Positions 18,855-41,432 of a stretch of DNA of 64,000 nt are shown in pieces; the stretch's first letter is position 1, and each line of letters opens with the position of its first letter. Source of the stretch: a virus (taxonomy: Duplodnaviria > Heunggongvirae > Uroviricota > Caudoviricetes). A program made the position numbers and the translations under genes. The DNA lies in IMG/VR virus record IMGVR_UViG_3300047445_000122. One strand, 5' to 3'. The notes under the pieces were generated by a model. That model had not been told where the DNA came from and did no database searches. It was given only the letters and a program-made list of their open reading frames with translations.

Positions 18855-19460
18855 TTATTGGATTGTGACGAACGATTGTTCAATGAAGTCATCGTCCTCC
18901 ATGCCCAACTTATCTGCCATGCGACGCAGGAGATTCATGAGGCTGTTGGTATGGACGATTTGTGAGTTGTAAACCTTGAGACCTGCCAGCTGCTCTTGGA
19001 ATTTAGCAACTTGGTTCTTCAGACTCACGACCTCGGAGAGAGCCGAAATTATAGTGGATTTGGTCTCGAAAGTAAAGGAGCTGAGCTTGTTGAACAAGGC
19101 CTGTTCCTCAACTGTGATCGTGCCATAGATGTGGGCTCCCACAAAGCAAACCTCATCATACTCAAACCCCAGTTCCTCCAGCTTGCTGCTGTTCATGCTC
19201 ATCAGCTCGAAAGCCGCGTCCATGGTCAGCGGCCACAGAGTCCGGTCCAGGACGTTCACTTGGGCAACAACGATGTGTGTCCCGATGACGTCTTTCTGGT
19301 CGTTAGGCAAGATTCCGGCGGCTGGTGACCCGAATTGGTTGAGGTGGTGAGAAAGCTCAACGTACAAGCGTTTAGCCACCTCCTCGGTCAAGCACACGAA
19401 GCGCATGCTCAGAGTCTTCGCGGTCGGGTTCTCCTTGAAGTTCTTCACGTCGTCAAGCAC
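18855..19460 (-). CDS. hypothetical protein (201 aa)
   Basis: Complete ORF between the MazG-like gene and uvsX. Confidence 0.4.
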   Translation of the reverse strand: MLDDVKNFKENPTAKTLSMRFVCLTEEVAKRLYVELSHHLNQFGSPAAGILPNDQKDVIGTHIVVAQVNVLDRTLWPLTMDAAFELMSMNSSKLEELGFEYDEVCFVGAHIYGTITVEEQALFNKLSSFTFETKSTIISALSEVVSLKNQVAKFQEQLAGLKVYNSQIVHTNSLMNLLRRMADKLGMEDDDFIEQSFVTIQ

Positions 19461-20065
19461 AGAGCCTCCTCATTGGCTTTCACATCGACTCCCTTCATCA
19501 CGCCCTTCGCCACGCGCTCATGGTTGCGCTTGTTCTTGAGCATGTAGGCTTCATACAACTCATCGTTGTTGTAGCCCAGGAAGGCGATGCCATGTTGGAT
19601 GAAGTCGATCAAGTACGACATCGTGAACTTGGCTTGGGACATTGCCAACTTGTATGTGTTGGAGCGTGCCGGGCTGATGTCATTCCAGAAATGACGGTAG
19701 GCATCAGACAACTTCGAGTAGAAGTTGGGCTGGTCTGGGGTGACCACATAGCCGGTCGGGAGCGCTTCAATGTCGTCAATCTCGATCATTGGGTAGTGCT
19801 TGACGTATCCGGCGAGCATGAAGTGGATCACATCTACCAGCTCGAACAGGGCTGCTTCACGGTTGAAGACAGGCTTGCGTTCATACCACTTCCACTTCTC
19901 CGTGACTTCCTCCAGGAATTCAGCCAGTTCAGTGTCTGCGGCGGCGTTGAAACGCCAAGCGAATGTTGGGTCAGTTCTCCAGCCGTCGCCATTGTAAGCC
20001 GTGTTGAGGGCTTCTTGAGAACGGCACATGGAACGAATTTGATGGAGGGTCACGATATGGGACAT
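19445..20065 (-). CDS. MazG-like NTP pyrophosphatase (T4 gp56 dCTPase/dUTPase-like)
   Basis: KWKWYERK...ALFELVDVIHFMLAGYV parallels T4 gp56 KWKARYIEAQEK...EIKFELVDIFHFVLNMFVG. Confidence 0.65.
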   Translation of the reverse strand: MSHIVTLHQIRSMCRSQEALNTAYNGDGWRTDPTFAWRFNAAADTELAEFLEEVTEKWKWYERKPVFNREAALFELVDVIHFMLAGYVKHYPMIEIDDIEALPTGYVVTPDQPNFYSKLSDAYRHFWNDISPARSNTYKLAMSQAKFTMSYLIDFIQHGIAFLGYNNDELYEAYMLKNKRNHERVAKGVMKGVDVKANEEALCLTT

Positions 20066-20646
20066 TAGTAGGTCACGCCTTTCTGTTCAGCGAAGTGTTT
20101 GAAGAAGTCAAGGAACGGACCAGTGCCATCCAGACAGTTGTTGAAGGTCGCATGGAAGTCGTTGAAACCACGGATGTACTCCTCGAAGGGGTGTGGAGCG
20201 AGACCTGATTTGCGTTCAACCTTGATGATGGGAACGTCCAGAGGCTTCAACAGCTCCTCATACTCATCCTCAGTGCGGAAGTCAGTGATCACGTACAGGC
20301 GTTCTGGATTTGCGATCACAGCCGGCATCTGATTCTTGATGAAGGCACGGACGAAATACTTGGAGTCCACTTCACGTACCTTGCCGGCCACCAGGATGAT
20401 GTCCCGGCCTGTCGCGCCTGTGGTATTGTTCGGGTGTTCATACACCTTGTCTTTCTGTTCATCGGGCATGTATGCGTTGAACCAAGGGAACATAACCTGT
20501 GCCAGGTTCCGTACTTCATCACTGAAGGACAGACGGACAGCATTATGTTCCTTGACGAGGATGGAGGCAAGGTAATCCTTGCCCACCCTACGTTCACCAC
20601 ACAAACACACCAGATTCTTTCGAGCTGGGCGTGCGATGGTATTCAT
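20065..20646 (-). CDS. deoxynucleoside monophosphate kinase (T4 gp1-like)
   Basis: P-loop CGERRVGKD (T4 gp1 has GVKRSGKD) and the YVITDFRTEDE region (T4 has YIVPDTRQDHE). Translationally coupled to the neighbouring genes. Confidence 0.65.
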   Translation of the reverse strand: MNTIARPARKNLVCLCGERRVGKDYLASILVKEHNAVRLSFSDEVRNLAQVMFPWFNAYMPDEQKDKVYEHPNNTTGATGRDIILVAGKVREVDSKYFVRAFIKNQMPAVIANPERLYVITDFRTEDEYEELLKPLDVPIIKVERKSGLAPHPFEEYIRGFNDFHATFNNCLDGTGPFLDFFKHFAEQKGVTY

Positions 20647-20647
20647 G

Positions 20648-21724
20648 TTACTCCATAATGTTGAATTTGCGGAACGGCGACCAGGTCACGGCGCTCAGGA
20701 GGTCGCCTTGGAGGCGGCGCGTTACGCGGTGTTGGTAGATCACACCCTTCTTCGACAGGATATATCCATACACCAGAGCAGCGTATTCATACATCAGGTC
20801 GCCGTAACCGACAGCATAGCGATCAAAGATGTCTTCGATCTGGTTCCAGTGTTTGCCCCTCTCAGCTTCCAGGATTTCAGTGGTCTGGGTGATCATGGAA
20901 CCGTATTGAGCAATCAGCTCGCTGAAGAAGTGTTCCCACACCAGGTGACCGCCAACTGGACCAACCAGAGCAACATCATTCTCATGGAAGTTCTGTTTCT
21001 CCTCCAGGACAGCATCGAACTGGTCAATGAAGTCGCTGTAGACGTGGGCATTGGTGACGTGCCAGCGGTAGGAACCCAGCTTCACAGTCGGGTGGATCTT
21101 CTTCACCTCATTGTACATCAGCTCGTGGATGAAACTGAACTCGAATGGGTTGATCGAGCCAGTACCAAACAACAGGTCGCCAGAGCGTTGGATACACTTG
21201 GTGTGGAACTCACCATTCTCCACATAGAAGTGGAGCTCACGATTGCATGGGATGTCTTTTGGTACATGACCTTCACCATACACAGCTTCGATGGCTTCCA
21301 GGTTGTCGATGGTTGGGTCAGCAATCGTGACGAAGGAGCGGCGGGTGTTGATACCGTCATTGCGGAATTGATCAACAGCAGTCTGGAACTGGCTGTAACG
21401 ATGGAGGCGAGGGCCGTATGCGCCGTGCCAGGTAACTCCATCATCGCTGTAGTTCTTTGCGCGGGGCAGGAAGAAGTCCAGGTATGGGGTCACTGCGTTG
21501 GCTCCAGCCATGACCCAGAAGGTCTCAGCGATCAGCTGGAAGATGTTGGATTTGCGTCCGTGGAGGTGTAGGTGGCGGGAGCGGGGATTTTTGAACTCCA
21601 GCGTCGTGTCGTACATCGCCAGAGCGTACCCATTGCGGGTGTCTTGTTTGATACCTTCCTTTTGAAGGGCTTGGAAGGCTCGGTGGATTGTGTGTGAGAC
21701 GGTGTTGCCTCGGATAGTTCTCAT
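20648..21724 (-). CDS. ThyA-superfamily enzyme (thymidylate synthase or dUMP/dCMP hydroxymethylase) with about 90-aa C-terminal extension
   Basis: ThyA landmarks in order: RNGYA, ETFWVM, YGP, NTRRSFVT, catalytic PCN, QRSGDLLFG...N, AHVYS. The sequence continues a further 90 aa beyond the canonical fold. Confidence 0.75.
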   Translation of the reverse strand: MRTIRGNTVSHTIHRAFQALQKEGIKQDTRNGYALAMYDTTLEFKNPRSRHLHLHGRKSNIFQLIAETFWVMAGANAVTPYLDFFLPRAKNYSDDGVTWHGAYGPRLHRYSQFQTAVDQFRNDGINTRRSFVTIADPTIDNLEAIEAVYGEGHVPKDIPCNRELHFYVENGEFHTKCIQRSGDLLFGTGSINPFEFSFIHELMYNEVKKIHPTVKLGSYRWHVTNAHVYSDFIDQFDAVLEEKQNFHENDVALVGPVGGHLVWEHFFSELIAQYGSMITQTTEILEAERGKHWNQIEDIFDRYAVGYGDLMYEYAALVYGYILSKKGVIYQHRVTRRLQGDLLSAVTWSPFRKFNIME

Positions 21725-22093: not shown

Positions 22094-23275
22094 TCATTTC
22101 TGTTTCTTCTCTTTGGCGAGCAGGTAGCTGTTGGAGATAACCTTGAAGGTGAACTCCGGGCGGGTCGTGGACTTGTACACATGGCCCTCACGCTTGACGT
22201 CCTTGTTCATGCCTGGGCCTTCAGCCAGTTCCAACAGCTTTGGAACAATCAAGTCGCCCTCGTTCATCAGTTCACTCAGTGGACCAATGAAGTCGATTGG
22301 GGTGTGCTTGACCTCGAATTCATCGGCCATCGCTTGGCGCTCGGCGGCAGTCCAGTACTTCTGCTTGTCAATGTCATACACATCAAACAGGCGGAACTCC
22401 AGGCCTTTGACCTTCTCGTGGTTGTCCTGGATGTTAGGTGCCAGGAGCTCACCTTGGAGGGCATGGGAGCCGTCCAGGCATTCCAGAACTTGGATCAGTT
22501 GTTGGTTATTCACAGCGGCCCAGAAGTTCGAGCCGTCATCGTCGCGCAGTTGCAGGTTGCGCGAGCAAACAGCAGTCACAGGCTCCTTGTACAGACCGAA
22601 CTTGAGCTTGAAGCCGTGTATCAGCTTCCGAATCAAGCCTGGATTCGAGGCTTTGAACTTGAGGTTGATCGCTTCATTGAAGTGTTTCGAGTCCGGGCGA
22701 ACCAGATACGCAGTCAGGGAGGAGCCATCCAGCTTGATCGTGCGCTCAAACACCTCACCCTTGTGGGTGGCAGAGCTCACGGTTTGAACCATGTTCTGGA
22801 CACGCGGTTGATCGGTCTTCGACACGAAGGAAGGAAACACGCGGATTGCGCCGCCGCCATTCGATGCGCCGCCGTTGTTGGTCTTGGCTTCCTCAACAGG
22901 CTCCCACTTCACAATCTTCAGATCGCTGGTGACGTCATCGCCTTCTTTCCAGTTGATCAGCTTCAGTTCCTTGAACTCCTGGATTGGCATCAACAGACCC
23001 TGGGACAGAGTACCACGCAGCTTGATGGTCTTGACACGCATACCGCGACGGCCATCCCAGTTGCTAAAGCGCTCCTCAAAGGAAGCATAGCGTGGATCAG
23101 AGGCATCAAGCCAGCTGTCCACTTCCATGTACACGGCCAGATCGCCTTCCATGTACAGTCCTTTCTGGACCACACATTGCCAGCCGTCGATCAGGGCCAG
23201 TTGAATCTTGTCAGCGCCTTCGATAGGCAGCAGTTGTGAGATGCGGCGAATTGTCGCCAGCTTACGTTCAGTCAT
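22094..23275 (-). CDS. ATP-dependent RNA/DNA ligase-family nucleotidyltransferase with a 180-aa N-terminal domain (Rnl5/DraRnl-like architecture)
   Basis: Motif I KLDGSS about 180 aa from the N-terminus. Start reassigned to ATG 23275 (MTERK) with GGAG SD. Confidence 0.45.
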   Translation of the reverse strand: MTERKLATIRRISQLLPIEGADKIQLALIDGWQCVVQKGLYMEGDLAVYMEVDSWLDASDPRYASFEERFSNWDGRRGMRVKTIKLRGTLSQGLLMPIQEFKELKLINWKEGDDVTSDLKIVKWEPVEEAKTNNGGASNGGGAIRVFPSFVSKTDQPRVQNMVQTVSSATHKGEVFERTIKLDGSSLTAYLVRPDSKHFNEAINLKFKASNPGLIRKLIHGFKLKFGLYKEPVTAVCSRNLQLRDDDGSNFWAAVNNQQLIQVLECLDGSHALQGELLAPNIQDNHEKVKGLEFRLFDVYDIDKQKYWTAAERQAMADEFEVKHTPIDFIGPLSELMNEGDLIVPKLLELAEGPGMNKDVKREGHVYKSTTRPEFTFKVISNSYLLAKEKKQK

Positions 23276-23722: not shown

Positions 23723-23905
23723 TCAGGCGAAGAACCAGCTGAAGGTCTGCTTGATGACAGACAGGGTCAGTTTGTGAGTGATCAGCCAGTACGGCAGTGA
23801 GATCCACCAGAAGATCCAGTTCAGGATCGCGTAACCGATGCTGTGGTGGAGAGTCCATCCCACCATCGCGCTGAAGCAAGCCACCAGAACGTAGAGCACT
23901 TTCAT
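23723..23905 (-). CDS. small membrane protein (60 aa)
   Basis: Two hydrophobic helices; coupled to its neighbours. Confidence 0.3.
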   Translation of the reverse strand: MKVLYVLVACFSAMVGWTLHHSIGYAILNWIFWWISLPYWLITHKLTLSVIKQTFSWFFA

Positions 23906-24333
23906 TCGCAGCCTTTCAAGTGGTTGTCAACAACTTGAGCAGCCAGCTTGCCATCGTACATGCCGTTGAAGTTGTCCTTGAGGTACTTCATCAGCGCACC
24001 TTTGTTCATAGGCAGGGTCACGGCGCGGAGAGCAGCGGTCAGATCGGCCACGCCCATTTGTTTCGGCAGGTACGCTTCCAGGATCGAGCGCTCAGCCAAC
24101 AGTTCATTGACGCGGGTCTCGGCCTTCGTGAAGCTGTGCTCCTCGTCAACCGTCTTGATGGATTTGCGAACTGCGTCAACGGCGTCAGCGTCAGTCGCTT
24201 CGCGGTTGCCGTCTTTCTTGGCCACAGCTGCGATTGCGCCGATGAGGTTGGCCAGTTTCCCGGCCTTGAACTTGTCGCCAGCCTTCAGGGCGTCTTCACG
24301 GTCTTGCTTGATACGGTCAATCAGAGTCGTCAT
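23902..24333 (-). CDS. GatB/YqeY-domain protein
   Basis: Length and sequence pattern typical of the YqeY family. Confidence 0.45.
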   Translation of the reverse strand: MTTLIDRIKQDREDALKAGDKFKAGKLANLIGAIAAVAKKDGNREATDADAVDAVRKSIKTVDEEHSFTKAETRVNELLAERSILEAYLPKQMGVADLTAALRAVTLPMNKGALMKYLKDNFNGMYDGKLAAQVVDNHLKGCE

Positions 24334-24518: not shown

Positions 24519-24753
24519 CTTTCTTCCTCCAAGGCCAGTAGGTTTCCAGGCAGTGAGCCAGGATGAGTGTGTTGAGGATCGGAACCAGGATGGCGATCAG
24601 AAGGAGGGTCAGAGCGGCCAGCTTGTCTTCCATAACGCGGGTTGGGCGTGTAGTCTTATTGACCATATCGTACCAACCGCTCAACATCCAGATGATCTGG
24701 ACGCCGACGCCGATTGCTGAGACCAGGTAGACGATGACCAGGAATTTGATCAT
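24502..24753 (-). CDS. small membrane protein (83 aa)
   Basis: Hydrophobic helices. Confidence 0.3.
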   Translation of the reverse strand: MIKFLVIVYLVSAIGVGVQIIWMLSGWYDMVNKTTRPTRVMEDKLAALTLLLIAILVPILNTLILAHCLETYWPWRKKDEQIR

Positions 24754-25028
24754 TTGTCTTCCTTCATGAACTTCTCCACGAACAGAGCCTCAGCTTTCGC
24801 CACGGTCTCGGATTCAACCCACTTCATCTGCGTCCACAGACGGCCATTGCCGTTCAGGAAGTCCGCAGCCACAGCGAAGGTCTTGTGCTCTTCCTTCGTG
24901 AGGGCGGTCTTGATTTTCATCGCGCCGATGATGTTGAAGGCTTGGGCCTTCTTGCCGGCATTGAAGCACTCAATCGCCTTGGCGATGTTGTTCATTGGAG
25001 GCAGGGATGGTTTGGTGGAGTTGTTCAT
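24750..25028 (-). CDS. hypothetical protein (about 92 aa)
   Basis: Start reassigned to ATG 25028, preceded by AAGGAAC and located 29 nt downstream of the promoter -10 at 25057..25062. Confidence 0.4.
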   Translation of the reverse strand: MNNSTKPSLPPMNNIAKAIECFNAGKKAQAFNIIGAMKIKTALTKEEHKTFAVAADFLNGNGRLWTQMKWVESETVAKAEALFVEKFMKEDK

Positions 25029-25056
25029 AATGTAGGTTCCTTTCACAGATGAGTCT

Positions 25057-26481: not shown

Positions 26482-26844
26482 TCAGTGTACAACGATTGCG
26501 TTCATATAGCCTTCCCAGAACAGGTCTTGCTGCTCGCGGGTTGGTTCCGGTTCGGCACCAAACAGAATGTCCTGGGCCTTCTCAACTTCCATCTTCATCA
26601 CCTTGCAGTTGCGTCCCCAGAGGTAGAAGTCTGGGTTGAGAGTGTCGATGGACACGACTGGGGTGAGCTCAACAGCCGGCTGTTGGGTCTGCTCTTCCAG
26701 GTGGATCAAGCTCAAGGTCGGGGTGAAGCGCTCGGTCTCCTTGTCCTTCCAGAACATGTGTTGGGCCTTCTCGAACACACGGTGGCCGATGCGTACTTGA
26801 GTGCCCAAGAGATAGGCGTGCAGCTTGGTCTGTTGTGGTGCCAT
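26482..26844 (-). CDS. hypothetical protein (120 aa)
   Basis: Complete ORF. Confidence 0.4.
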   Translation of the reverse strand: MAPQQTKLHAYLLGTQVRIGHRVFEKAQHMFWKDKETERFTPTLSLIHLEEQTQQPAVELTPVVSIDTLNPDFYLWGRNCKVMKMEVEKAQDILFGAEPEPTREQQDLFWEGYMNAIVVH

Positions 26845-26859
26845 GATATAGTCCCTTCG

Positions 26860-27246
26860 TTAGCTGAGGAGGTCGGTCAGGTGTTCATCCATCTGATCAA
26901 AGAATCCATCTGGCGGCCAGCAGATGGTTCCATACTTGCTGATTGGGACTTCCACCGCGCCGCCTGGACGGTGGAACATGAACACCACTTCGTCCAGGAT
27001 ATGGCTGCGCTCGCCCCTGTCCATATCCTGGAACTTCTGGCGGATCGCAACGCGGAGGCCGTTGAAGACCACGTCAATGTTGCTGAAAACAACTTGTTCG
27101 ATGTGCTCTGCATCAGCCAGCAGTTGTTTACCAATGTCCGACATATGCTTGCCAGTCTGCCAGACTTGACTGATGACGCGGAGGCTGGCTTGCGTCTTCG
27201 GGTCGATTTGACTCCAGTCACCACAATGGAATGTGAGTTTCTTCAT
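26860..27246 (-). CDS. hypothetical protein (128 aa)
   Basis: GGAG SD. The conserved promoter lies 33 nt upstream of the ATG. Confidence 0.45.
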   Translation of the reverse strand: MKKLTFHCGDWSQIDPKTQASLRVISQVWQTGKHMSDIGKQLLADAEHIEQVVFSNIDVVFNGLRVAIRQKFQDMDRGERSHILDEVVFMFHRPGGAVEVPISKYGTICWPPDGFFDQMDEHLTDLLS

Positions 27247-27278
27247 GTTTTCTCCAGTTTGCTACCAACATTGAAGCG

Positions 27279-27326
27279 ATTATAGACCACTTTATTGAGA
27301 AAGTAAAGTGGTCTCAGGAAATATTT
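27279..27326 (-). promoter_or_regulatory. conserved phage promoter
   Basis: Minus strand reads AAATATTTCC..CCACTTTACTT..GTGGTCTATAAT, 33 nt upstream of ATG 27246. Confidence 0.6.
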
Positions 27327-28030
27327 TCTGACACGCCTCGTGGACCAAAGTTGTCCAACTTGAAGTCCAACATGTCTGTGATCTTGATAGGACGCACCCC
27401 AGTCAGCTTCAGGTCAGCAGGGATGATATAGGGGCGCTCCTTCAGGATTTTCACTGTAGCGCGTCCATCAACAATTGGACCAACTTCAATAATCGGCGCT
27501 TCCTGGTCAATCTGTCTCTCGACATACTTGGCGTTTTCGATTGGGACGCAATGCTCCATCCCATCCTCGAAGTTGAGAGCCGAAGTGACGTTGACAGACT
27601 TGTAGTTGGCGTGATGGCTATACTCGATCACGCCAACGCACTCAGGGCGCTTGATATCCGCCATCCCCTTGCACCATTCCTCATGACGCTTGAAATGGAT
27701 CTCAATGTCCTTGACGATGTTGCGTACAGTATCGCCGGAAGCCACGAAGTCATCCAGGATCAGGTAGCGGGTCACATCAACGTTCCGCGTGCCTTCAATC
27801 TTCTCTCCGTGGCTCGATTCACCATCCTTGCGAACAACAATCAACGGGAAGTCGATCAACATCAGGGTGGCGAAGGCGAACGACAGACCGCTTTTGCCGG
27901 TCACTGCAATCGCCTGGGCGTCATACTTCTTCAGGAGGAATGGGATGACCTTGGACAGCCTCTGGGCGTGATGACGCAGAGAGACTGGATCGAACTGGAT
28001 GTCTGAGTAACCGCTGGGGCGAAATTCCAT
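27314..28030 (-). CDS. phosphoribosyltransferase (type I PRTase) domain protein with a C-terminal extension
   Basis: Canonical PRPP-binding motif RYLILDDFVASGDTV. Confidence 0.55.
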   Translation of the reverse strand: MEFRPSGYSDIQFDPVSLRHHAQRLSKVIPFLLKKYDAQAIAVTGKSGLSFAFATLMLIDFPLIVVRKDGESSHGEKIEGTRNVDVTRYLILDDFVASGDTVRNIVKDIEIHFKRHEEWCKGMADIKRPECVGVIEYSHHANYKSVNVTSALNFEDGMEHCVPIENAKYVERQIDQEAPIIEVGPIVDGRATVKILKERPYIIPADLKLTGVRPIKITDMLDFKLDNFGPRGVSENIS

Positions 28031-28109
28031 GAGTGGCTCAATGAGTGGTTGAAGTTACCGGAAGTATAATGTCAACCACTTCTCCCGGTCTAGAACTTTT
28101 TTACCAATA

Positions 28110-28262
28110 TCAACCACGCTCTGACCCCTGGTGTGTCCTGTGGGATTTACCACTCGTAAGTGCTTGATTTTAAAGAGCGTAAAACTTGACTTCTCCCGAA
28201 ATGCTGTTGTGAATTTCGGGCAATAAAAAGCCCCTGGAGGCCGAAGTCCAGGGGCAGATGTT
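28110..28262. repeat. intergenic repeat element, copy C
   Basis: TGACCCCTGGTGTG ... TCGTAAGTGCTTGATT ... GCGTAAAACTTGACTT ... CCCGAAAT-GCTGTTGTG-AATTTCGGG hairpin ... AAAAAGCCCCTGG..CCAGGGGC ... GATGTTGTTA. Confidence 0.65.
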
Positions 28263-28271
28263 GTTATCTTG

Positions 28272-28502
28272 TTAGCGTCTTAGTTGCTCTACAGCTTTGT
28301 TGAAGTCTTGAACCGGAATCTTGACCCCTTTCTTCCAGAGGTCACCGTGCATTTCTTCCCAACACTCAACTGACAGAGTCCAAGATAACGTCGTCTGGGG
28401 CAGGGTCAACTGAACAAACAGGACTTCTGGCACTCCTAACTTCCGTTTCAATACCCTCAAGTTAGCACTGTAGTCTTTGAACACAAATTCCAGACTCTCC
28501 AT
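28272..28502 (-). CDS. small hypothetical protein (about 76 aa)
   Basis: Start reassigned to ATG 28502 (AAAGGGGG SD) to remove the 108-nt overlap with ORF 28565..29611. Confidence 0.3.
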   Translation of the reverse strand: MESLEFVFKDYSANLRVLKRKLGVPEVLFVQLTLPQTTLSWTLSVECWEEMHGDLWKKGVKIPVQDFNKAVEQLRR

Positions 28503-28564
28503 AGCGCCCCCTTTGTTGAGGAAGGCATAGTATAACGTTAACGATTCACAACCGTAAAGGAAAA

Positions 28565-29611
28565 TTAAATCAGGCTGTGCGTTGTCGCTTTCGGCTGGGG
28601 AGCGCCTGCGCCGTTGTACTTCGAGCGTACTTGACCACCTTCCTTCAGCCGCAGATACTTGTCTGTTTCGCACAACAGGTTACTGCCGATGTTGTGGGCA
28701 TCTTCGAGGTGGAATTGTACAAGGGCTTCAACTTCAGCGCTGTAGCCATGCTGAATAGCAACTTGTGGCAATGCGACCTTCACCGCCTCCGACAGTTGAG
28801 CAAGCTCAAGGTAGTGTTGAGCTACCGGGATGGACTTGGTCAGTGGGCGACCATGAAGGCGATTCAAGAAGCGAACCGGGCCAGGGCCGATTGGCGCCCA
28901 GGTCTTCCAATCCGGGGCATCGCGCATGGTCATGTACTTCAAGTCTGCGATTTGCTGACCTGCCATGAAGTCACCGTTGGACTTGGCCTTGGTGAGGCGG
29001 CTGTGATAGCTCTGAAGGGTCTCCCCGGCTTCTGGCGGGCCAATTTCATAGATCGCCTTGAAGACGACATGAGCCAGGAAGTAGCGCTTGTCCTTGCACT
29101 TCTCGTACAACTCCAGGTCACCATCGACTTCAGCCGGGTTCCCGCAACCACGGATCATGTAGGCACCGGTGAACAGCTTGTCTTCCCTGCCGACAGCGCA
29201 GAAGCGGGTATACAGGTCATCAGCGTCATAGCCGTTCGTCAAGTCAGTCCAACCCAGCTTCAGGACGGTCGGAGACCAGTTGATCCAGCGCGCTACAGCG
29301 ACGTTGAACCACATGTCCTTGGAGTGATGATGTGGAGTGTAGAACTCCTTGAACAAAATCTCAGTCTCCTTGTCGTGCATGCGGTTGACGTTACAAAAAC
29401 GATGGTCGCGGATGAAGGTGTCTTCGGTCCACGGCTTGGGTTGACCTTCAGCTTTCTTGATGCGGACGGTCTCCCGCTCCAGTGCCCACTCACAGGCAGC
29501 GATCACATGGTTATGATAGTTGGCGGCGAACTCACCGTTGGCCTTGATCTGGTCTTCCAGGGTCTGGGACAGTTCAACAGCCTTGTCAAGTTTTTCAATC
29601 AGTGTGTTCAT
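28565..29611 (-). CDS. hypothetical protein (348 aa); candidate DNA-modification enzyme
   Basis: Conserved-looking globular protein with no motif I can name. Coupled by an ATGA overlap to the downstream P-loop kinase gene. Confidence 0.45.
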   Translation of the reverse strand: MNTLIEKLDKAVELSQTLEDQIKANGEFAANYHNHVIAACEWALERETVRIKKAEGQPKPWTEDTFIRDHRFCNVNRMHDKETEILFKEFYTPHHHSKDMWFNVAVARWINWSPTVLKLGWTDLTNGYDADDLYTRFCAVGREDKLFTGAYMIRGCGNPAEVDGDLELYEKCKDKRYFLAHVVFKAIYEIGPPEAGETLQSYHSRLTKAKSNGDFMAGQQIADLKYMTMRDAPDWKTWAPIGPGPVRFLNRLHGRPLTKSIPVAQHYLELAQLSEAVKVALPQVAIQHGYSAEVEALVQFHLEDAHNIGSNLLCETDKYLRLKEGGQVRSKYNGAGAPQPKATTHSLI

Positions 29612-30396
29612 ACAAAGAACCCTCCCAGGGCATTGGATGTTGGTTTCGGCTCCTCCTTCGGAGCAGGAGCATATTGGGCGATCATTTCTGGGGTCGGCGC
29701 CACTTGACCCATATCAGTCCAGCGCTTGAGCTCAGCGTTGCGCTTGTTGATGTCGAACTTGCGAATGAGGCGATAATCCACATCAGACAAACCGTCAGTA
29801 GCAAGCAAATTCAACATCTGTAAGACATCATTCCGGTCGCCATAGTGCGTCCAGATACCATAGTCAACCGCCTTGTTATGGGAGGTCATGACTGGGCGAT
29901 ACTTGGCACAGACCTTGTCAGTATCCAGAGGATCAATGTTGCCCTTCGAGACCCGGCGCTTCAGGATCGAGTTGAACACCACTTCAGGGTCAATATCAAT
30001 GGTGAACCAGAAGTATGGCACGTTGGCTGTCTTGAGGTCATCATAGATCACTTGAGAACCCTTGAAGGTTGTAGACGACAGCACACCCTCTGCCAGAGTG
30101 GTCTTGATCTTGGCCAGGTGCATGATAGCACGCTGTCCGGCCTCAAACGACTTCATGCCTTGGTCAGTCTTCTTGTCGTGGGTGCCCTTTACAGCGTCCA
30201 GACCACCACAGTCAGTCTCATACTTGCCAACGATGTGATGGGTACCACAGTCATAGTAGTGACAGCCGAACTCCGGGAGGTGTTTCAGCTCAGCATTGGG
30301 CGGCAGGAAGTTGCGGATGATGGTGCTCTTGCCAGTACCATTGGTGCCACGGATATTGATGTATCCAGGATCACCCCATTTCCAGTTTGGGTTCAT
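29608..30396 (-). CDS. P-loop kinase-family protein (polynucleotide / nucleotide kinase-like)
   Basis: Walker A GTNGTGKST within the first 30 residues. No HAD phosphatase DxDGT motif. Confidence 0.5.
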   Translation of the reverse strand: MNPNWKWGDPGYINIRGTNGTGKSTIIRNFLPPNAELKHLPEFGCHYYDCGTHHIVGKYETDCGGLDAVKGTHDKKTDQGMKSFEAGQRAIMHLAKIKTTLAEGVLSSTTFKGSQVIYDDLKTANVPYFWFTIDIDPEVVFNSILKRRVSKGNIDPLDTDKVCAKYRPVMTSHNKAVDYGIWTHYGDRNDVLQMLNLLATDGLSDVDYRLIRKFDINKRNAELKRWTDMGQVAPTPEMIAQYAPAPKEEPKPTSNALGGFFV

Positions 30397-30477
30397 GTTG
30401 CTCCTTTCATTGTTTGGGGGATTATACTACCAATCGAGAAAAATAAATAGCCCCCAGATTTCTCTGGAGGCCATTGT

Positions 30478-31469: not shown

Positions 31470-32327
31470 TCATTGCGCCGACTTGAACATGGTAGGCATG
31501 GTACCCAGATACTGGATCTTGGTATCGCGCAGTGCTTCAGCCTGCATGCGAGCAATTTCCATCTGCATGACTTGCGGGTTGTTACGATAGGCTTGACCAC
31601 GCAGTTCGATGGCCTTGGCTTCAGCTTGAGCGACTTCCACTTGGGCTTGAGCGGTCACAACAACCTTCTCTTGCTCGGCCTTGGTGCGGCGCACTTCGTT
31701 CTCCACCTTCATGGCGTCCTGAGTCGCTTGAATCTTGGCATTGATCGAGGCCACAACGTTATCCGGGAAGTGCAGCTTGCCCAGGTAGCTGATGGATTCA
31801 ACCGTGATACCGATGGTGGCGGCGCGTTTGATTACAGCGTCATTGACTTCCTTCAGCAGCTTGGCCTTGCCGTCGCCTTGCAGGGACTCAACATCATACT
31901 TGGTGCCGGCTTCGTTGAACTCGTCACGAACGAACGTGCGCAGGAAACTGTCGCTGATGACGTCGATGGGCTGGCGGTACTTCTGGAACACCTTGATGGC
32001 GTTCGCCTTCTCCACATGGTAGGAGATTTGGATGTCCGTGGACACGCCGATACCACCGGCCACCTGGAACTGGATCGACTGATCCGGCTTCTTGCTCTCT
32101 TCACTGCGGGCTGTCCACATGTCGGCTTGGGTGAAGGTCGGCAGCAGTTCCACGCTGGTGTTCCAGCCAGCCATGTAGCGACCTGGATCCAGAACCTTGG
32201 AGTCAACGCCACGGTCATCACCGAACTTGTTGAACTGGACGCCAACAAAGCCGTTCGGGACGTTGTTACAGGCCGACAGGCCCAGAGCCAGGGCGGCGAT
32301 AGCTACGAAACGCATCAGACGGTTCAT
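31470..32327 (-). CDS. SPFH/band-7 (stomatin/HflC-like) domain lipoprotein
   Basis: SPFH core with a coiled-coil tail (EVRRTKAEQEK...). Start reassigned to ATG 32327, giving the lipobox MNRLMRFVAIAALALGLSAC. The stop of the upstream small membrane ORF overlaps this ATG. Confidence 0.65.
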   Translation of the reverse strand: MNRLMRFVAIAALALGLSACNNVPNGFVGVQFNKFGDDRGVDSKVLDPGRYMAGWNTSVELLPTFTQADMWTARSEESKKPDQSIQFQVAGGIGVSTDIQISYHVEKANAIKVFQKYRQPIDVISDSFLRTFVRDEFNEAGTKYDVESLQGDGKAKLLKEVNDAVIKRAATIGITVESISYLGKLHFPDNVVASINAKIQATQDAMKVENEVRRTKAEQEKVVVTAQAQVEVAQAEAKAIELRGQAYRNNPQVMQMEIARMQAEALRDTKIQYLGTMPTMFKSAQ

Positions 32328-32536
32328 TGACATACCACCTTGTTCTGGTTGTACAGATGGGTCAGGTACTTGATAGTGAAGTACGCCGCCAGGGCGGTTC
32401 CGACCAGAGCCAGGACCAGCAGAATGGAGGATGCGATTTTCAGGATCGCAGGCAGGACGAAGCCGGTGAAGACCAGCCACAGTACGATGACCAGCAGCAG
32501 TCGCACCACCAGGCCAAATTCTTTGGAATTAAACAT
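32324..32536 (-). CDS. small 2-TM membrane protein (NfeD-like partner of the SPFH protein?)
   Basis: Hydrophobic 70-aa ORF, translationally coupled (ATGA) to the SPFH gene. Confidence 0.4.
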   Translation of the reverse strand: MFNSKEFGLVVRLLLVIVLWLVFTGFVLPAILKIASSILLVLALVGTALAAYFTIKYLTHLYNQNKVVCQ

Positions 32537-32617: not shown

Positions 32618-33199
32618 TCAAGCCCACCAACGATCAAGCTCAATGTTGGAGTCGTACACTGTGGTCTCCAGCTTGACCTCAAGGACTTCGATCTGTGGGT
32701 TGTTGATCTTCAGCAGCTGCGCATAGGCGTTGCACCAGGTATCCACTCCATGAACCTTCCCATAGCGATACCGGGCGTTCAGGAAGACGGTCTTGTGGCT
32801 GTCAGTGACCTCCATAGGGTTCCTGGACTCCACAAAGTCCTTCAGTGGGTTATCCAAGACAAGATCAACAGGCATCCTGATCTTGATATGGCACTCCCTG
32901 TAGTTGTTGTCCGAAGGAGTCAGGGTTGGAAGGTTTTCATGCTCCAGCTTCTGGCGCGTCACCCTCCTGCGGTTCATGGTCAACGACAACCCAGCCCTGC
33001 GGATTTCAGCCATGATGTCGTTGATGTTATTGTAGCCGCCCTTGCCAAGGACAAAGTGGCGAGTGATCATGACATCAGTTTGCTCGCGCTCCTCGCCCTT
33101 CAAGAGGATGATGGTGGGCTTCCAACCGGGGATATGGTACTGATCCCCGGTGTAGGTGACGTGGGCATGGAAATGCCCCTTCAGCTCGGAGACCTTCAT
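32618..33199 (-). CDS. hypothetical protein (193 aa)
   Basis: Complete ORF coupled to the helicase gene. Confidence 0.45.
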   Translation of the reverse strand: MKVSELKGHFHAHVTYTGDQYHIPGWKPTIILLKGEEREQTDVMITRHFVLGKGGYNNINDIMAEIRRAGLSLTMNRRRVTRQKLEHENLPTLTPSDNNYRECHIKIRMPVDLVLDNPLKDFVESRNPMEVTDSHKTVFLNARYRYGKVHGVDTWCNAYAQLLKINNPQIEVLEVKLETTVYDSNIELDRWWA

Positions 33200-34971: not shown

Positions 34972-35046
34972 TGGCATACCGGGATGGGATCGAACCACCG
35001 ACACCAGGTTTTGGAGACCTGTGTTCTACCACTGAACTACCGATAC
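34972..35046 (-). tRNA. tRNA-Trp (CCA)
   Basis: Manual cloverleaf: anticodon loop CTCCAAA, T-loop TTCGATC, encoded CCA end. Confidence 0.7.
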
Positions 35047-35228
35047 ATTGTGTTGTTACTTATACTGCTTGGCCAGAGCCATCAGACCCTTCGCAGCTTC
35101 ATCGCCATAGGTCTTGAAGAATGCTTCAGTGGTCTTGTCATAGATGCTCTTGGCCAGAGCTGGATTCTTGTCGTCCAGAGCCTTAGCCAGCTGACTACCT
35201 TTGGCGGCGTGCGTATCCTTGTAGCGGA

Positions 35229-35516
35229 TCACTTGATCACAACCAGGATGTCTTCGTTGGACAGGATCAGATATTCCACGCCGTCAACCTTCACACCCTG
35301 ACCGGCGCCACGCTTGTGGACGATCTTGTCGCCCTTGTGGAAGGGTTCTGATTCACGCAGAGCGCCGGTGCTGACGTGGGAGACTTCAACCACAATGCCT
35401 TCAGAGACAGAAGCAGCAGGAGCCGGGGCGACGATGATACCGCCAGCTGAGGTTTCAGGGGCGGATTCACGCGTGATCACGCAGTAGCCTGGAGTTGGCT
35501 TGATTTGTTTGGACAT
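35229..35516 (-). CDS. GroES-like co-chaperonin (Hsp10; T4 gp31 analogue)
   Basis: IVHKRGAGQGVKVDGVEYLILSNEDILVVI matches the GroES C-terminus. Start set to ATG 35516 (MSKQIKPT) with AAGGAAA SD, because the longer track ORF would run into tRNA genes. Confidence 0.7.
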   Translation of the reverse strand: MSKQIKPTPGYCVITRESAPETSAGGIIVAPAPAASVSEGIVVEVSHVSTGALRESEPFHKGDKIVHKRGAGQGVKVDGVEYLILSNEDILVVIK

Positions 35517-35534
35517 GGTTTCCTTTTGATTGAA

Positions 35535-35608
35535 TGGAGGCGTGTGGGTGAATCGAACACCCGTCTTAGGCTTTGCAGGCCCAGACCTAACCACTCAGAC
35601 AACACGCC
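35535..35608 (-). tRNA. tRNA-Cys (GCA)
   Basis: Perfect acceptor stem, anticodon loop CTGCAAA, T-arm GGGTG TTCGATT CACCC. D-arm is unusual. Confidence 0.6.
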
Positions 35609-35614
35609 ATTGAT

Positions 35615-35697
35615 TGGTGGGGATACAGGGACTCGAACCCAGACGCCGAAGCCGGAGCGTTTGAAACTCCTGTGTCTACCAATTTCACCATATCCCC
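35615..35697 (-). tRNA. tRNA-Leu (CAA), class II
   Basis: Anticodon stem GGAGT/GCTCC with loop TTCAAAC, and a long variable arm. Confidence 0.6.
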
Positions 35698-35818
35698 AAA
35701 TTTCAACACCATCCTTACGCCCTCGCCCATCTATCGTGACAAGTTAGCAGAACTTCGGTGCACCTCACTTCAAGCAGTGCTGGCTACGCTGCACGGACTG
35801 CCGAATGATGTTGAAATT

Positions 35819-35894
35819 TGGAGCGGGTGACAGGTCTCGAACCTGCGCATGCCGGCTTGGAAGGCCAGTGCTTTACCAACTTAGCTACACCCGC
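35819..35894 (-). tRNA. tRNA-Gly (TCC)
   Basis: Perfect acceptor stem GCGGGTG/CACCCGC, anticodon loop CTTCCAA, encoded CCA. Confidence 0.8.
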
Positions 35895-35896
35895 AA

Positions 35897-35972
35897 TGGC
35901 GCCCAGGGCCGGAATCGAACCAGCGACACGTGGATTTTCAGTCCACTGCTCTACCAACTGAGCTACCTGGGC
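35897..35972 (-). tRNA. tRNA-Phe (GAA)
   Basis: Acceptor stem GCCCAGG/CCTGGGC, anticodon loop CTGAAAA, T-loop TTCGATT. Confidence 0.8.
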
Positions 35973-36107
35973 ATTGAAGCGTTTTGCATGGAAGTAGACT
36001 TCAATGCTATTCATGGACAATATACGCTGACTAGAACTGTAGAGACAGGGATGAGAACGTACAATGCTGCTTCACCACATATCAGGGAGCGACCCAGAAC
36101 ATTCAAT

Positions 36108-36193
36108 TTGGTGCGAACGGAGGGACTCGAACCCATCACGCCTAGTGGCACATCCCCCTCAAGGATGCGTGTCTGCCAATTTCACCACGTTCG
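36108..36193 (-). tRNA. tRNA-Leu (GAG), class II
   Basis: Anticodon stem CATCC/GGATG with loop TTGAGGG, and a long variable arm. Confidence 0.65.
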
Positions 36194-36269
36194 CATTGCC
36201 CCGGAGCCTGAAGAAACCATCCGGGCAGACCTGCTTCAGATCAAGTCTGGGGAGCAACCCCGCTAGAAC

Positions 36270-36524
36270 TCAATTCAACAAGCGACTCAACAACCGCTGG
36301 CTCTTGTTTCCATGTTTGGGTGAGTTGATGGTGACGTCCGGGAAGTCTGACTTGTTGAGCTGACGCCCAATCCGAGTCTCAAGACAACCCACGCACAACA
36401 TACCAACTATCGACCCAACAACCTTCATCCACAAATCAGTGTTGATGAAGTAGTGCTCGTTGGCCTTGCCGGTGTCTACACAGCAATCCAAACACAGCCA
36501 CTTTCGTCTTGATTTACACGCCAT
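36270..36524 (-). CDS. small Cys-rich protein (84 aa) embedded in the tRNA array
   Basis: The CLDCC...CVGC pattern suggests a zinc-ribbon-like fold. No tRNA overlaps it. Confidence 0.35.
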   Translation of the reverse strand: MACKSRRKWLCLDCCVDTGKANEHYFINTDLWMKVVGSIVGMLCVGCLETRIGRQLNKSDFPDVTINSPKHGNKSQRLLSRLLN

Positions 36525-36541
36525 GTGACTCCCATATCAAT

Positions 36542-36618
36542 TGGCGCGCCGAAGTGGACTTGAACCACTGACCCTGGGATTAGAAGGCCCATGCTCTATC
36601 CAGCTGAGCTACCGGCGC
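36542..36618 (-). tRNA. tRNA-Arg (TCT)
   Basis: Acceptor stem GCGCCGG/TCGGCGC, anticodon loop CTTCTAA (one mismatched closing pair), T-loop TTCAAGT. Confidence 0.55.
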
Positions 36619-36629
36619 GGCGCTGTTCG

Positions 36630-37151
36630 TTATGGAAGAATTATAAGTGAGGAGGTCAGAGGAGCAGAAACTTGTACTTGCTTCTCAACCACAACGTAGA
36701 AGCGGGAGAATGCCGCTGCCTTCTTGGACACTGGATACGGTCGCCTCATCAACTGACACTTAACCTTAGTCCAGAATCCCACCTTGATATCCACCAATTC
36801 AGTGATGTCAGCGGCGAAGCGGAACAGACCTCCAGTGGTATCAGCATCCAACATCTTACGCAGTTGTTCGCCGCCAGGAGTGTTGAAGACTGAGATCAGC
36901 ATGGTCTTGTCATGATCCATCTTGGTGACCAGGAAGTCGGCATATTCACTCGACTTGTCCAGACTGCCATAGATCACATCCACGAGGCCGTATTGAGCCT
37001 TGGTAGGGCGCTTACCCTCTCCCAGCCATTCCACGTTTTGAGCTTCCTGGGCTTTGTTCAGGGCATCGATGGCGTCAGTGTAGTCCAAGTCTGCCAGTGC
37101 GCCACGAGGCTCGAACTGGACTTGGTACTCACCAATGATTTCTTGTAGCAT
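36630..37151 (-). CDS. hypothetical protein (173 aa) within the tRNA array
   Basis: Complete ORF flanked by tRNA genes. Confidence 0.45.
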   Translation of the reverse strand: MLQEIIGEYQVQFEPRGALADLDYTDAIDALNKAQEAQNVEWLGEGKRPTKAQYGLVDVIYGSLDKSSEYADFLVTKMDHDKTMLISVFNTPGGEQLRKMLDADTTGGLFRFAADITELVDIKVGFWTKVKCQLMRRPYPVSKKAAAFSRFYVVVEKQVQVSAPLTSSLIILP

Positions 37152-37231
37152 ACACGCCCTCTTGATGTTCGGAGCAGCCTTCCACTGAAGGAGGTCAAGG
37201 AAAGGAGGAAAACTTGACGGCTGCGGTTGAT

Positions 37232-37309
37232 TGGTCTCCGCGACAGGATTTGAACCTGCGACCCCTCGCTCCCAAAGCGAGTGCTCTACACGGGCTGAGC
37301 TACACAGAG
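37232..37309 (-). tRNA. tRNA-Pro (TGG)
   Basis: C1-G72 acceptor stem (typical of tRNA-Pro), anticodon stem CTCGC/GCGAG with loop TTTGGGA. Confidence 0.7.
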
Positions 37310-37506
37310 AATGTTAGGTGTCAATGCTGGATTGTTGTGGAAGGATTTCAAGTGTTATGCCCTTGTTCTCCAACATTGACGGGGATGGTCGGCAGACTAC
37401 CCTTATGTAGTGTGACATTCCTCCAACCGGACATATTCTAACGCATGTTGGCGTCTAGTCTATCCGGCGGAATGCCGTTTTGGTTTTAAACTACTGCCGT
37501 TTGATC

Positions 37507-37582
37507 TTGGTGGTAGGGGCAGGGATCGAACCTGCGACCTGTGGATTATCGGTCCACTGCTCTGCCAACTGAGCTACCCCAC
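37507..37582 (-). tRNA. tRNA-Ile (GAT)
   Basis: Perfect anticodon stem GTGGA/TCCAC with loop CCGATAA. Note C at position 33. Confidence 0.6.
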
Positions 37583-37597
37583 CGGGTTGGTACTTAG

Positions 37598-37685
37598 ACC
37601 ATACATAACAACACTCGCGCCTTCTCTGAACATGTAGGCACTGTAGTGGGTTTCTGTTCCTCAGGAGGAGTGTTGTTATGTATGG
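37598..37685. repeat. 18-bp perfect inverted repeat (CCATACATAACAACACTC / GAGTGTTGTTATGTATGG) with a 52-nt loop
   Basis: Seen directly in the sequence. The right arm overlaps the 3' end of tRNA-Ser(TGA) by 3 nt. Confidence 0.6.
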
Positions 37686-37775
37686 CGGAAATGGTGAGAC
37701 TCGAACTCACACAGCGGTTGCCCGCCCTTCAGTTTTCAAGACTGCTGCCGCTAGGCCAACTCGGCTAACATTTCC
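37683..37775 (-). tRNA. tRNA-Ser (TGA), class II
   Basis: Acceptor stem GGAAATG/CATTTCC, anticodon loop CTTGAAA, long variable arm. Confidence 0.65.
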
Positions 37776-37776
37776 G

Positions 37777-37868
37777 TGGCGGAGACTGTTGGATTTGAAC
37801 CAACGGAGCCACTTGCGTGACTCGGTGCCTTAGCAGGGCACTGCAATAGACCGCTCTGCCAAGTCTCC
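37777..37868 (-). tRNA. tRNA-Ser (GCT), class II
   Basis: Acceptor stem GGAGACT/AGTCTCC, anticodon stem GTGCC/GGCAC with loop CTGCTAA, long variable arm. Confidence 0.7.
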
Positions 37869-38221
37869 AGTGTTTGGTGTGATCTCCTTGATACCGCCTC
37901 AGACCCTGTCTATGCATTCGGGCGTCACACTCTTCAGGTTTCAATCCCGGTTACAGCGTCCGGGGAACTAACGCCAGGCCCACTAGACGGAGGCTGGTGC
38001 TCTGTTGTACTGACTCTCTCAAATTGCACTTGAGGGCGTGTGCGCGGGAGTCTGCTTTTGCCCTGAATTCTGTCCACCCGAAAATCAAGTACATCCACTG
38101 TCCGCTGACTGGAAGCGGGGTTCGTATCAATCTTGATGTTGGGAAAGGGTGTCTCCATCTGATTCCAACGTTGCCTCCAACCCCTCTCGACCAGTCAGCC
38201 CGATACTCATTGGATATTCTG

Positions 38222-38296
38222 TGGCCGGAAGGACAGGAATCGAACCTGTGTACCAAGGCTATCCCGCCCCTGCTCTACCAACTGAGCTACCTCCCG
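38222..38296 (-). tRNA. tRNA-like gene with unresolved anticodon (possibly degenerate)
   Basis: Good acceptor, D and T arms (ACAGG TTCGATT CCTGT) and an encoded CCA. The anticodon arm does not fold canonically by eye. Confidence 0.4.
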
Positions 38297-38369
38297 GAAG
38301 CACAACCCATATTCCTGCAATCAGCATGCGTTCCCAATGGATTGTGGCCGTTCTATCACGACTGTCAAC

Positions 38370-38447
38370 TGGTTGCGACGGGCTGGATTTGAACCAGCGA
38401 CCTGAGGATTATGAGTCCTCTGCTCTACCTGACTGAGCTACCTCGCC
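38370..38447 (-). tRNA. tRNA-Met-like (CAT) with an imperfect acceptor stem
   Basis: Anticodon stem GAGGA/TCCTC with loop CTCATAA. The 3' end GCAACCA resembles an initiator tRNA. Two acceptor-stem mismatches including 1-72. Confidence 0.5.
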
Positions 38448-38454
38448 TTTGATC

Positions 38455-38530
38455 TGGCGCCGTGAGCTGGATTTGAACCAACGTGACACCCGCAACATGG
38501 GTGCATCCTAAGCCTCTAGATGATCACGGC
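38455..38530 (-). tRNA. tRNA with a GTT anticodon (Asn-like) and an atypical anticodon loop
   Basis: Perfect acceptor stem GCCGTGA/TCACGGC. Anticodon stem CACCC/GGGTG with loop ATGTTGC. Confidence 0.4.
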
Positions 38531-38618
38531 AAAACTACTGAAGTGAGAATCCTCTACATCGCGGCGGCAAGGACGCATCAGGCGTCCAATGTAGTTGACT
38601 CTCGCTTCAGGAGTCTGA

Positions 38619-38694
38619 TGGCGTCTCCAACGAGATTTGAACTCGTGTACCCACCTTGAAAGGGTGGTGTCCTAGACCGCTAGACGATGGAGAC
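38619..38694 (-). tRNA. tRNA-Glu (TTC)
   Basis: Near-identical architecture to E. coli tRNA-Glu: TCGTCTAGCGGTCTAGGACACC..CTTTCAA. Confidence 0.8.
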
Positions 38695-38696
38695 AG

Positions 38697-38778
38697 TGGA
38701 AGGGGCGACAGGATTTGAACCTGTGACGTATGCTGGGATCAAAACCCAGTGCCTTGAACCGAACTTGGCGACACCCCT
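38697..38778 (-). tRNA. tRNA-Gln (TTG)
   Basis: Anticodon stem CTGGG/CCCAG with loop TTTTGAT. A1-U72 acceptor stem. Long D-loop. Confidence 0.55.
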
Positions 38779-38786
38779 ATTGTTTT

Positions 38787-38863
38787 TGGCTCCCCAGGCT
38801 GGACTCGAACCAGCGACCAACACATTAACAGTGTGCTGCTCTACCAAACTGAGCTACTGAGGA
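38787..38863 (-). tRNA. tRNA-Asn (GTT)
   Basis: Anticodon loop CTGTTAA, D-arm TAGCTCAGTTTGGTAGAGC, T-loop TTCGAGT. Confidence 0.75.
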
Positions 38864-38920
38864 TTTGTTACTACAGCAGGGTATCAGTTCGCCGGAGCGG
38901 AATTGCTCGACGTGAAGAGA

Positions 38921-38953: not shown

Positions 38954-38972
38954 AACTTACTTGACAACCGAA

Positions 38973-41428: not shown

Positions 41429-41432
41429 ATTA

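Follow-up and report, generated by a model that had tools for sequence, protein, structure and literature searches.

A predicted 5-hydroxymethyldeoxyuridine DNA kinase and its translationally coupled aGPT-Pplase clade 1 partner in an uncultivated phage related to PhiW-14

Do three neighbouring genes of an uncultivated tailed phage together encode the post-replicative half of a DNA hypermodification pathway? The question is raised by a 64,000-nucleotide stretch of viral DNA (IMG/VR record IMGVR_UViG_3300047445_000122), called here the window. An earlier note on this DNA had described a phosphoribosyltransferase (PRTase)-fold protein, a 348-amino-acid protein without assigned function and a P-loop kinase encoded side by side, and had proposed that they modify thymidine after replication or, alternatively, that the kinase repairs RNA ends. 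All three open reading frames (ORFs) were found at the positions given there; read from the minus strand, 27314..28030 encodes the PRTase-like protein (238 aa), 28565..29611 the 348-aa protein and 29608..30396 the kinase (262 aa). Gene calls on metagenome contigs of identical sequence from JGI and Logan gave the same three genes. Ga0495669_0000010 (JGI), the longest of these contigs, comprises 165,148 bp, of which the window represents approximately positions 91.4-155.4 kb. Our analysis makes it quite probable that the kinase and the 348-aa protein, an aGPT-Pplase clade 1 (Pplase1) homologue, form a pair that activates 5-hydroxymethyldeoxyuridine (5-hmdU) in DNA for thymine hypermodification, with putative docking of the kinase to the sliding clamp, and that the PRTase-like protein stands outside this pathway.

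Residues 1-261 of the kinase matched gp37 of Delftia phage PhiW-14 with 52% identity (tblastn, E 9e-83), and the Walker A P-loop GTNGTGKST (residues 17-25, positions 30322..30348 on the minus strand, read from the translation) was invariant between the two proteins. Purified PhiW-14 gp37 phosphorylates 5-hmdU in DNA (PMC8989533). The search also found the homologue of Acinetobacter phage SH-Ab 15599 (27% identity, E 7e-16) and kinases of the type present in Pseudomonas phage M6, and a profile of the window kinase and gp37 aligned with the kinase domain of gp186 of Bacillus phage SP10 (hhalign probability 97.1%). By this homology the 262-aa protein is predicted to be a kinase of 5-hmdU in DNA (5-HMUDK), which upholds the assignment first suggested for it. 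The PhiW-14 type, to judge from sequence comparison, is a divergent, long-form clade of these kinases. When 1.84 billion cluster representatives were searched exhaustively with HMMER, the kinase had 127 matches; only three reached E<=1e-30, and one of these was a fragment of the window protein. In scans of IMG/VR with the kinase PhiW-14 was the only match, and a PDB sequence search gave no meaningful match. In RefSeq the 5-hmdU DNA kinases validated for PhiW-14, M6 and ViI carry the label 'terminase small subunit' (NC_013697 gene 37, NC_007809 gp054 and NC_015296 Vi01_061c, respectively); PHROG 800 bears the same label, and this misannotation is still spreading.

The P-loop protein had alternatively been considered a Pnk-like polynucleotide 5'-kinase that would cooperate with an RNA ligase in the repair of tRNA or other RNA ends. 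The RNA ligase gene is real (22094..23275, or ..23326), the window contains 19 tRNA genes, and a 262-aa P-loop kinase is of suitable size for such a role. However, no similarity to Pnk, AAA_33, Zeta-type or adenylate kinases was detected for the 262-aa protein, in Pfam even at E<=1, and it had no relatives in the PDB; the clustering with polynucleotide or adenylate kinases that had been named as the contrary outcome did not appear. Instead, gp37, a proven DNA-base kinase, is its homologue from end to end. The protein contains no phosphatase domain, which, like its Walker A motif, had been recognized before. A HAD_PNKP-type phosphatase (E 5e-10) is encoded by a separate gene of the same phage outside the window (11414-12022 of our record L104), where it adjoins a 193-aa ORF without family match. 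This phosphatase is a more plausible RNA-repair partner of the ligase than the kinase is, and we regard a role of the kinase in RNA-end repair as extremely improbable.

The partner of the kinase, previously described as unknown, could be assigned to a family. The 348-aa protein matched Pfam PF18723 (HMUDK_hel) with 114.8 bits at a gathering cut-off of 25 (E 6e-33, positions 7-275 of the 281 in the model), and phrog_2396 with E 3e-57. In GenBank the HMUDK_hel family is labelled aGPT-Pplase clade 1. The protein was 54% identical to its full-length homologue PhiW-14 gp72, about 31% to M6 gp55 and 31% to the homologue of phage 15599, and the motifs RFCNVxR..D..T, TGAYMIR, FMA..DL, GPG and CE..KY were invariant among the four sequences. 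It also aligned with residues 305-540 of SP10 gp186 (hhalign probability 97.7%). On these similarities we class it as an aGPT-Pplase clade 1 / HMUDK_hel member that accompanies the kinase. The expectation that a pyrophosphorylase-type transferase follows the kinase was borne out insofar as the 348-aa protein belongs to the Pplase family; the PRTase-fold protein does not. Comparison of the Pplase1 profile with that of the ADDT/Pplase2 transferases gave a hhalign probability of 0.4%, corresponding to no detectable similarity, and for this reason we do not claim that Pplase1 has the catalytic Cys/Glu of ADDT. A PDB sequence search with Pplase1 gave no meaningful match, and the single-sequence AlphaFold model of the 348-aa protein was unusable (predicted local distance difference test score, pLDDT, 34).

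The three genes had been described as partly overlapping. This proved correct for the kinase and Pplase1 genes, in which the stop of the former and the start of the latter share 4 nt (ATGA at 29608-29611), but not for the PRTase gene, which lies 534 nt downstream of the Pplase1 gene. We take these two genes to be coupled in translation. The 534-nt gap contains a 76-aa ORF (28272..28502, minus strand), which was called on both the JGI and the Logan contigs, and a terminator-like hairpin found by folding (28230..28255, minus strand). The hairpin consists of a 9-bp GC-rich stem followed by the U-run UUUUUAUU; its minimum free energy was -19.1 kcal/mol (z -2.8), and none of 200 shuffled sequences was equally stable. 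A second hairpin of this kind, with a 13-bp stem (-21 kcal/mol, z -5.0), was found by folding upstream of the kinase gene (30446..30475, minus strand). Between it and the kinase gene there are a TATAAT sequence and a strong AAGGAG ribosome-binding site, the latter 5 nt before the ATG. Because the two terminator-like hairpins set its boundaries, the transcription unit is likely to comprise the kinase gene, the Pplase1 gene and, as the last gene, the 76-aa ORF, with the PRTase gene outside. The 76-aa ORF had no match in Pfam, PHROG, NCBIfam or PADLOC; it was considered as an equivalent of PhiW-14 gp38, but this was ruled out by the absence of similarity.

The two genes are arranged differently in the phages that possess their homologues. 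In PhiW-14 they are 32 kb apart, and in phage 15599, which has the alpha-dapT pathway (PMC13458397) and, like the window phage, a long-form kinase and a Pplase1 homologue, they are also far from each other. In M6, a siphovirus with ADDT, pyridoxal phosphate (PLP) and radical-SAM genes in the same cluster, the Pplase1 gene (gp55) comes immediately after the kinase gene (gp54), as in the window. In SP10, a Herelleviridae phage that makes alpha-glutamylthymine, the kinase and Pplase1 domains follow each other in the order of the window genes but are parts of a single 637-aa polypeptide, gp186, which shares only about 21-28% identity with the window proteins. The ATGA coupling described here, the adjacency in M6 and the fusion in SP10 argue that Pplase1 is a subunit or a partner of the kinase.

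Since the PRTase-like gene lies next to this unit, it has to be asked whether it takes part in the same pathway. In the 238-aa protein we recognized a loop for phosphoribosyl pyrophosphate (PRPP), with the sequence YLILDDFVASGDT, as well as an RK..HG loop resembling that of orotate phosphoribosyltransferase (OPRT). Its family profile matched PurR and OPRT in the PDB (E 9e-9 to 3e-7), and its AlphaFold2 model (pLDDT 81.5) matched OPRT (E 1e-5) and PurR in Foldseek. The OPRT/PurR-like core comprises residues 1-135; an extension of about 100 aa is unique to the window copy. The protein scored below the Pfam gathering thresholds (17.0 versus 26.3 bits for PF00156, and 20.4 versus 27 bits for PF24390). 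It has the core of a type I PRTase and is OPRT-like, and its family is divergent and minimal. Nucleotide salvage and the binding of PRPP or ppGpp are candidate roles for it. A match to the PRTase of retron type III-A in PADLOC (E 9e-4), weak and generic, was rejected as a mere match to the PRPP loop, and nothing relevant was found in the literature on an anti-defence role of phage PRTases.

If all three genes served one pathway, the PRTase would be the transferase, either displacing the (pyro)phosphate from 5-P(P)mdU or giving a PRPP-derived adduct. Such a role would fit the adjacency of the three genes on one strand, the intact PRPP loop and the OPRT-like RK..HG loop; in addition, the unique extension is predicted to be folded, and no ADDT was found nearby, which leaves the transferase of the pathway missing. 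However, between the PRTase gene and the kinase unit there are a strong terminator and a spacer of 235 nt, and the substrate of type I PRTases is PRPP rather than DNA. No homologue of the protein was found in PhiW-14, and a phage-wide tblastn search returned only 7 records, with PhiW-14, M6, ViI and 15599 not among them. Members of the family, roughly 160 aa long, are encoded among early or accessory genes in T7-like phages (RS-PI-1 gp42 and our records L100 and L101), jumbo phage XacN1 and a metagenomic phage contig of 70 kb; mycobacteriophages encode structural relatives. In the regions examined, no 5-HMUDK was found near the homologues in RS-PI-1, XacN1 and three metagenomic contigs or near the mycobacteriophage relatives. 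Because of the intervening terminator, the lack of a PhiW-14 homologue and the relatives without a nearby 5-HMUDK, we consider the PRTase gene a neighbour and not a member of the module to which it had been assigned. It is probably a separate transcription unit with no part in the hypermodification pathway, and a single pathway served by all three genes is very unlikely. Directly downstream of the PRTase gene there is a 128-aa ORF (26860-27246, minus strand), which in PADLOC weakly matched the C-terminus of NsnB (E 1.8e-5).

Apart from the kinase-Pplase1 pair, which we take to be the module that activates 5-hmdU, the window contains genes for the pre-replicative supply of 5-hydroxymethyl-dUTP (hmdUTP). 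The cluster of ThyA-like, kinase and MazG-type genes reported before (19445..21724) is real and is located 8 kb from the pair. It encodes, all on the minus strand, a predicted dUMP hydroxymethylase of the ThyA superfamily (20648..21724; Pfam Thymidylat_synt, phrog_3676 with E 3e-86), a dNMP kinase (20065..20646) and a dUTPase_2/MazG-type pyrophosphohydrolase that is a probable dTTPase/dUTPase (19445..20065; Pfam dUTPase_2, E 1e-15). The hydroxymethylase is 41% identical to the product of PhiW-14 gene 230, the dNMP kinase is 51% identical to that of gene 231, and the cluster is syntenic with PhiW-14 genes 230-232. The dNMP kinase and the dUTPase_2 protein correspond to the two halves of a single protein of phage 15599, gp18, with 38% identity to its N-terminal and 33% identity to its C-terminal half. 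Phage 15599 gp18 is a proven dTTPase/dUTPase (PMC13458397).

The relationship with PhiW-14, the classical alpha-putrescinylthymine phage (PMC5889632, PMC8989533), extends to other genes of the window. More than 25 PhiW-14 homologues were found in synteny, typically with 30-60% protein identity. They include PhoH, dCMP deaminase, rIIA/B, gp41, UvsX and the gene 70 helicase, the trio of dUTPase, dNMP kinase and dUMP hydroxymethylase, and baseplate, neck and terminase genes; the two phages share the pre-replicative trio and a T4-like backbone. At the DNA level no close relative was found among 50,697 phage records, save one 38-nt chance match. From its gene content, the source of the window is best described as an uncultivated T4-like myovirus that is a distant relative of PhiW-14.

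The window kinase and PhiW-14 gp37 share not only the long form but also a C-terminal ...LGGFF tail. The window kinase ends with a Pro/Ala/Lys-rich linker followed by ...ALGGFFV, and motif comparison identifies LGGFFV (29611..29628, minus strand) as a putative binding epitope for the sliding clamp gp45. The C-terminus of T4 gp43 (EKASLDFLFG) binds gp45, and the C-termini of T4 gp33 and gp55 are gp45-binding epitopes as well; one kind of tail is common to the polymerase and the late-transcription factors of a phage (PMC2988020, PMC6212786). The kinase tail, a short and hydrophobic C-terminal peptide preceded by a flexible linker, appears to resemble the epitopes of T4 gp43, gp33, gp55 and DNA ligase. 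In the six-frame translation of the window the tail of the kinase was the sole occurrence of LG[GAS]FF. In that of PhiW-14 the motif occurred five times, always in a real gene and within two residues of the stop: in the DNA polymerase (KLGAFFV), an exonuclease, the 5-HMUDK, the putrescinyltransferase gp109 (an ADDT) and a NrdA.1-like protein. PhiW-14 gp33 ends with SLGGFAAT, and the tail pattern shared in this phage can be written as (TT)xLG[GAS]F(F). The exonuclease (gene 32, 26496-27356 of our record L003), which ends LGGFFA, and the 99-aa NrdA.1-like protein (gene 98, 31188-31487 of L004), which ends LGAFFT, are candidate clamp clients in their own right.

In phage 15599 the tails co-vary. 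Its enzymes carry the clamp-type tail of their own phage, of the SLxxLF or SLMDLF type as opposed to the LGGFF of the window kinase: the DNA polymerase ends with SFSLNSLF, the protein in the gp33 position with TISLKELF, the 5-HMUDK with TTNLMDLF and the ADDT with TFSLMDIL. Among the closest relatives of the window kinase 16-17 of about 17 had T4-type tails (e.g. SLFDLFGA, SLFDIFGG and SMFDMFS). A tail of this kind was present in only one of 97 short, M6-type kinase forms, and that one was a fragment of the window kinase; the M6 kinase itself is a short form of 187 aa without a clamp-type tail, unlike the window kinase. Metagenomic ADDTs of the PhiW-14 clade carry the same kind of tail, and so does an adjacent Rieske oxygenase (L014, ...KTALGAFF). 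Genes for Rieske/ring-hydroxylating oxygenases were seen immediately before PhiW-14-clade ADDT genes on two other metagenomic contigs (L014, 8982-10915, and L103, 1082-3068), and this oxygenase may catalyse a further modification step. From the shared and co-varying tails we infer, as a new proposal, that the long-form kinase and ADDT are gp45 clients. No paper linking DNA-modification enzymes to gp45 was found, and none of the gp45 clients reported in the literature searched is a DNA-modification enzyme. With a modest degree of confidence the proposal can be widened to the T4-like hypermodifying phages of the PhiW-14, 15599 and window lineages, in which the base kinase and the amine transferase, and maybe at least one Rieske oxygenase, would be gp45 clients through the same epitope as polymerase, gp33 and gp55.

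Taken together, the following sequence of reactions can be proposed. The dCMP deaminase, dUMP hydroxymethylase, dNMP kinase and dTTPase/dUTPase, whose identities are assigned by homology, would replace dTTP by hmdUTP, and the phage polymerase would build 5-hmdU-containing DNA, as expected from the biology of PhiW-14. By analogy with gp37, the kinase would then use ATP to phosphorylate hmU within the DNA polymer at its 5-hydroxymethyl group and so create a leaving group. The LGGFFV tail would bind the gp45 clamp and bring the kinase to newly replicated DNA, and Pplase1 would work with the kinase on the same base. A transferase (ADDT/Pplase2) encoded elsewhere in the genome, if present, would exchange the phosphate for an amine, with the remaining sites being converted to thymine.

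Several observations weigh against this proposal. Concerning the kinase, Pfam PF18748 (HMUDK_HMUD1) missed the window protein even at E<=1. The model recognises SP10 gp186 and M6 gp54, but it also misses the validated PhiW-14 gp37; since it leaves the long-form clade uncovered, the missing match is no argument against membership of the window protein among these kinases. Concerning Pplase1, no activity has been established for any member of the family, and M6 gp55 was dispensable for N-alpha-GlyT formation in vitro. The window Pplase1 also ends with ...TTHSLI, which contains no aromatic residue. For the clamp-tail match, proteins of PhiW-14 and 15599 served as proxies for the polymerase and gp45 of the window phage. 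ViI was considered as a third lineage with clamp tails, but its gp67 and gp33 had no tail in common; it was dropped, and the clamp proposal is therefore confined to phages of the PhiW-14 and 15599 types.

The remaining point against it is the transferase. PhiW-14 has the putrescine transferase gp109, whereas no counterpart was found in the window phage: the best tblastn match to gp109 in the window had E 0.99, a hidden Markov model (HMM) of 12 ADDT sequences gave at best E 2.1 in its six-frame translation, and the 84 kb covered of the 165-kb contig, comprising the window and 20 kb beyond its ends, yielded no match to ADDT (PF18724). Of 606 database matches to the ADDT family, the best 120 included none on a contig of about 165 kb. 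A metagenome scan with an ADDT alignment returned 80 loci, none of them from the contig of the window; a known JGI ADDT with 57% identity was likewise absent. At 24750-25046 (minus strand) the window contains a homologue of PhiW-14 gene 108 (46% identity), after which come ORFs for small membrane proteins but no transferase; in PhiW-14, gene 108 is directly upstream of the putrescinyltransferase gene 109.

These negative results can also be read as indicating a phage that lacks ADDT altogether and resembles SP10, in which the coupled kinase and Pplase1 would be self-sufficient and Pplase1 would resolve 5-PmdU, yielding either thymine or an adduct with an amino acid or another group. SP10 makes alpha-glutamylthymine with a kinase-Pplase1 fusion, and no Pplase2 was detected in it (PMC5889632, Table 3). 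The gene 108 homologue, which has no ADDT gene beside it, would also agree with this reading. Nevertheless, about 81 kb of the contig lie outside the 84 kb covered, the collection used for the metagenome scan does not contain these records, and the limit to the best 120 of 606 matches, the lack of a demonstrated Pplase1 activity and the dispensability of M6 gp55 apply here as well. We therefore consider a self-sufficient kinase-Pplase1 pair rather unlikely, and keep to the reading in which the pair activates 5-hmdU for a transferase that may be encoded elsewhere.

Other genes in the neighbourhood were recorded in the course of the analysis. The 19 tRNA genes form a cluster at 34972-41519 (minus strand), between the helicase and the baseplate block, whereas the feature tables of the PhiW-14 record contain none. 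A YqeY-like protein (Pfam E 7.5e-13) is encoded between the RNA ligase gene and the module (23902-24333, minus strand); it matches phrog_1460, which is annotated 'tRNA amidotransferase'. Between the helicase gene and the kinase unit there is a gene for an SPFH/Band_7 lipoprotein (31470-32330, minus strand; phrog_200, E 5e-63), and a Band_7 gene is also present on an unrelated PRTase-bearing contig (L099). Directly downstream of the gene-70-type helicase gene, where PhiW-14 has the unrelated gp71, is a 193-aa ORF (32618-33199, minus strand) matched by the AbiEi models of PADLOC (E 1.4e-10). Finally, a 327-aa protein encoded at 12858-13841 (minus strand) has at its N-terminus a hydrophobic stretch resembling a signal peptide and matches Pfam NMT1_3 (E 5e-12). 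This family includes the TAXI-type TRAP solute-binding proteins, and the gene could serve uptake as an auxiliary gene.

For the kinase-Pplase1 pair, the window adds a second, distant lineage beside PhiW-14, which until now was almost unique. It also holds lessons for annotation: 5-hmdU DNA kinases are mislabelled as terminase small subunits, PF18748 is blind to the long forms, and a PRTase gene in the vicinity should not be taken for a part of the pathway. The clamp-type tail provides a testable hypothesis of recruitment and a sequence signature by which further DNA-acting enzymes of such phages may be recognized. If the proposal is true, post-replicative hypermodification would be physically coupled to the clamps left on newly made DNA, which could explain how the enzymes find hmU-containing DNA. 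The coupling might perhaps also account for the modification of no more than a fraction of the sites.

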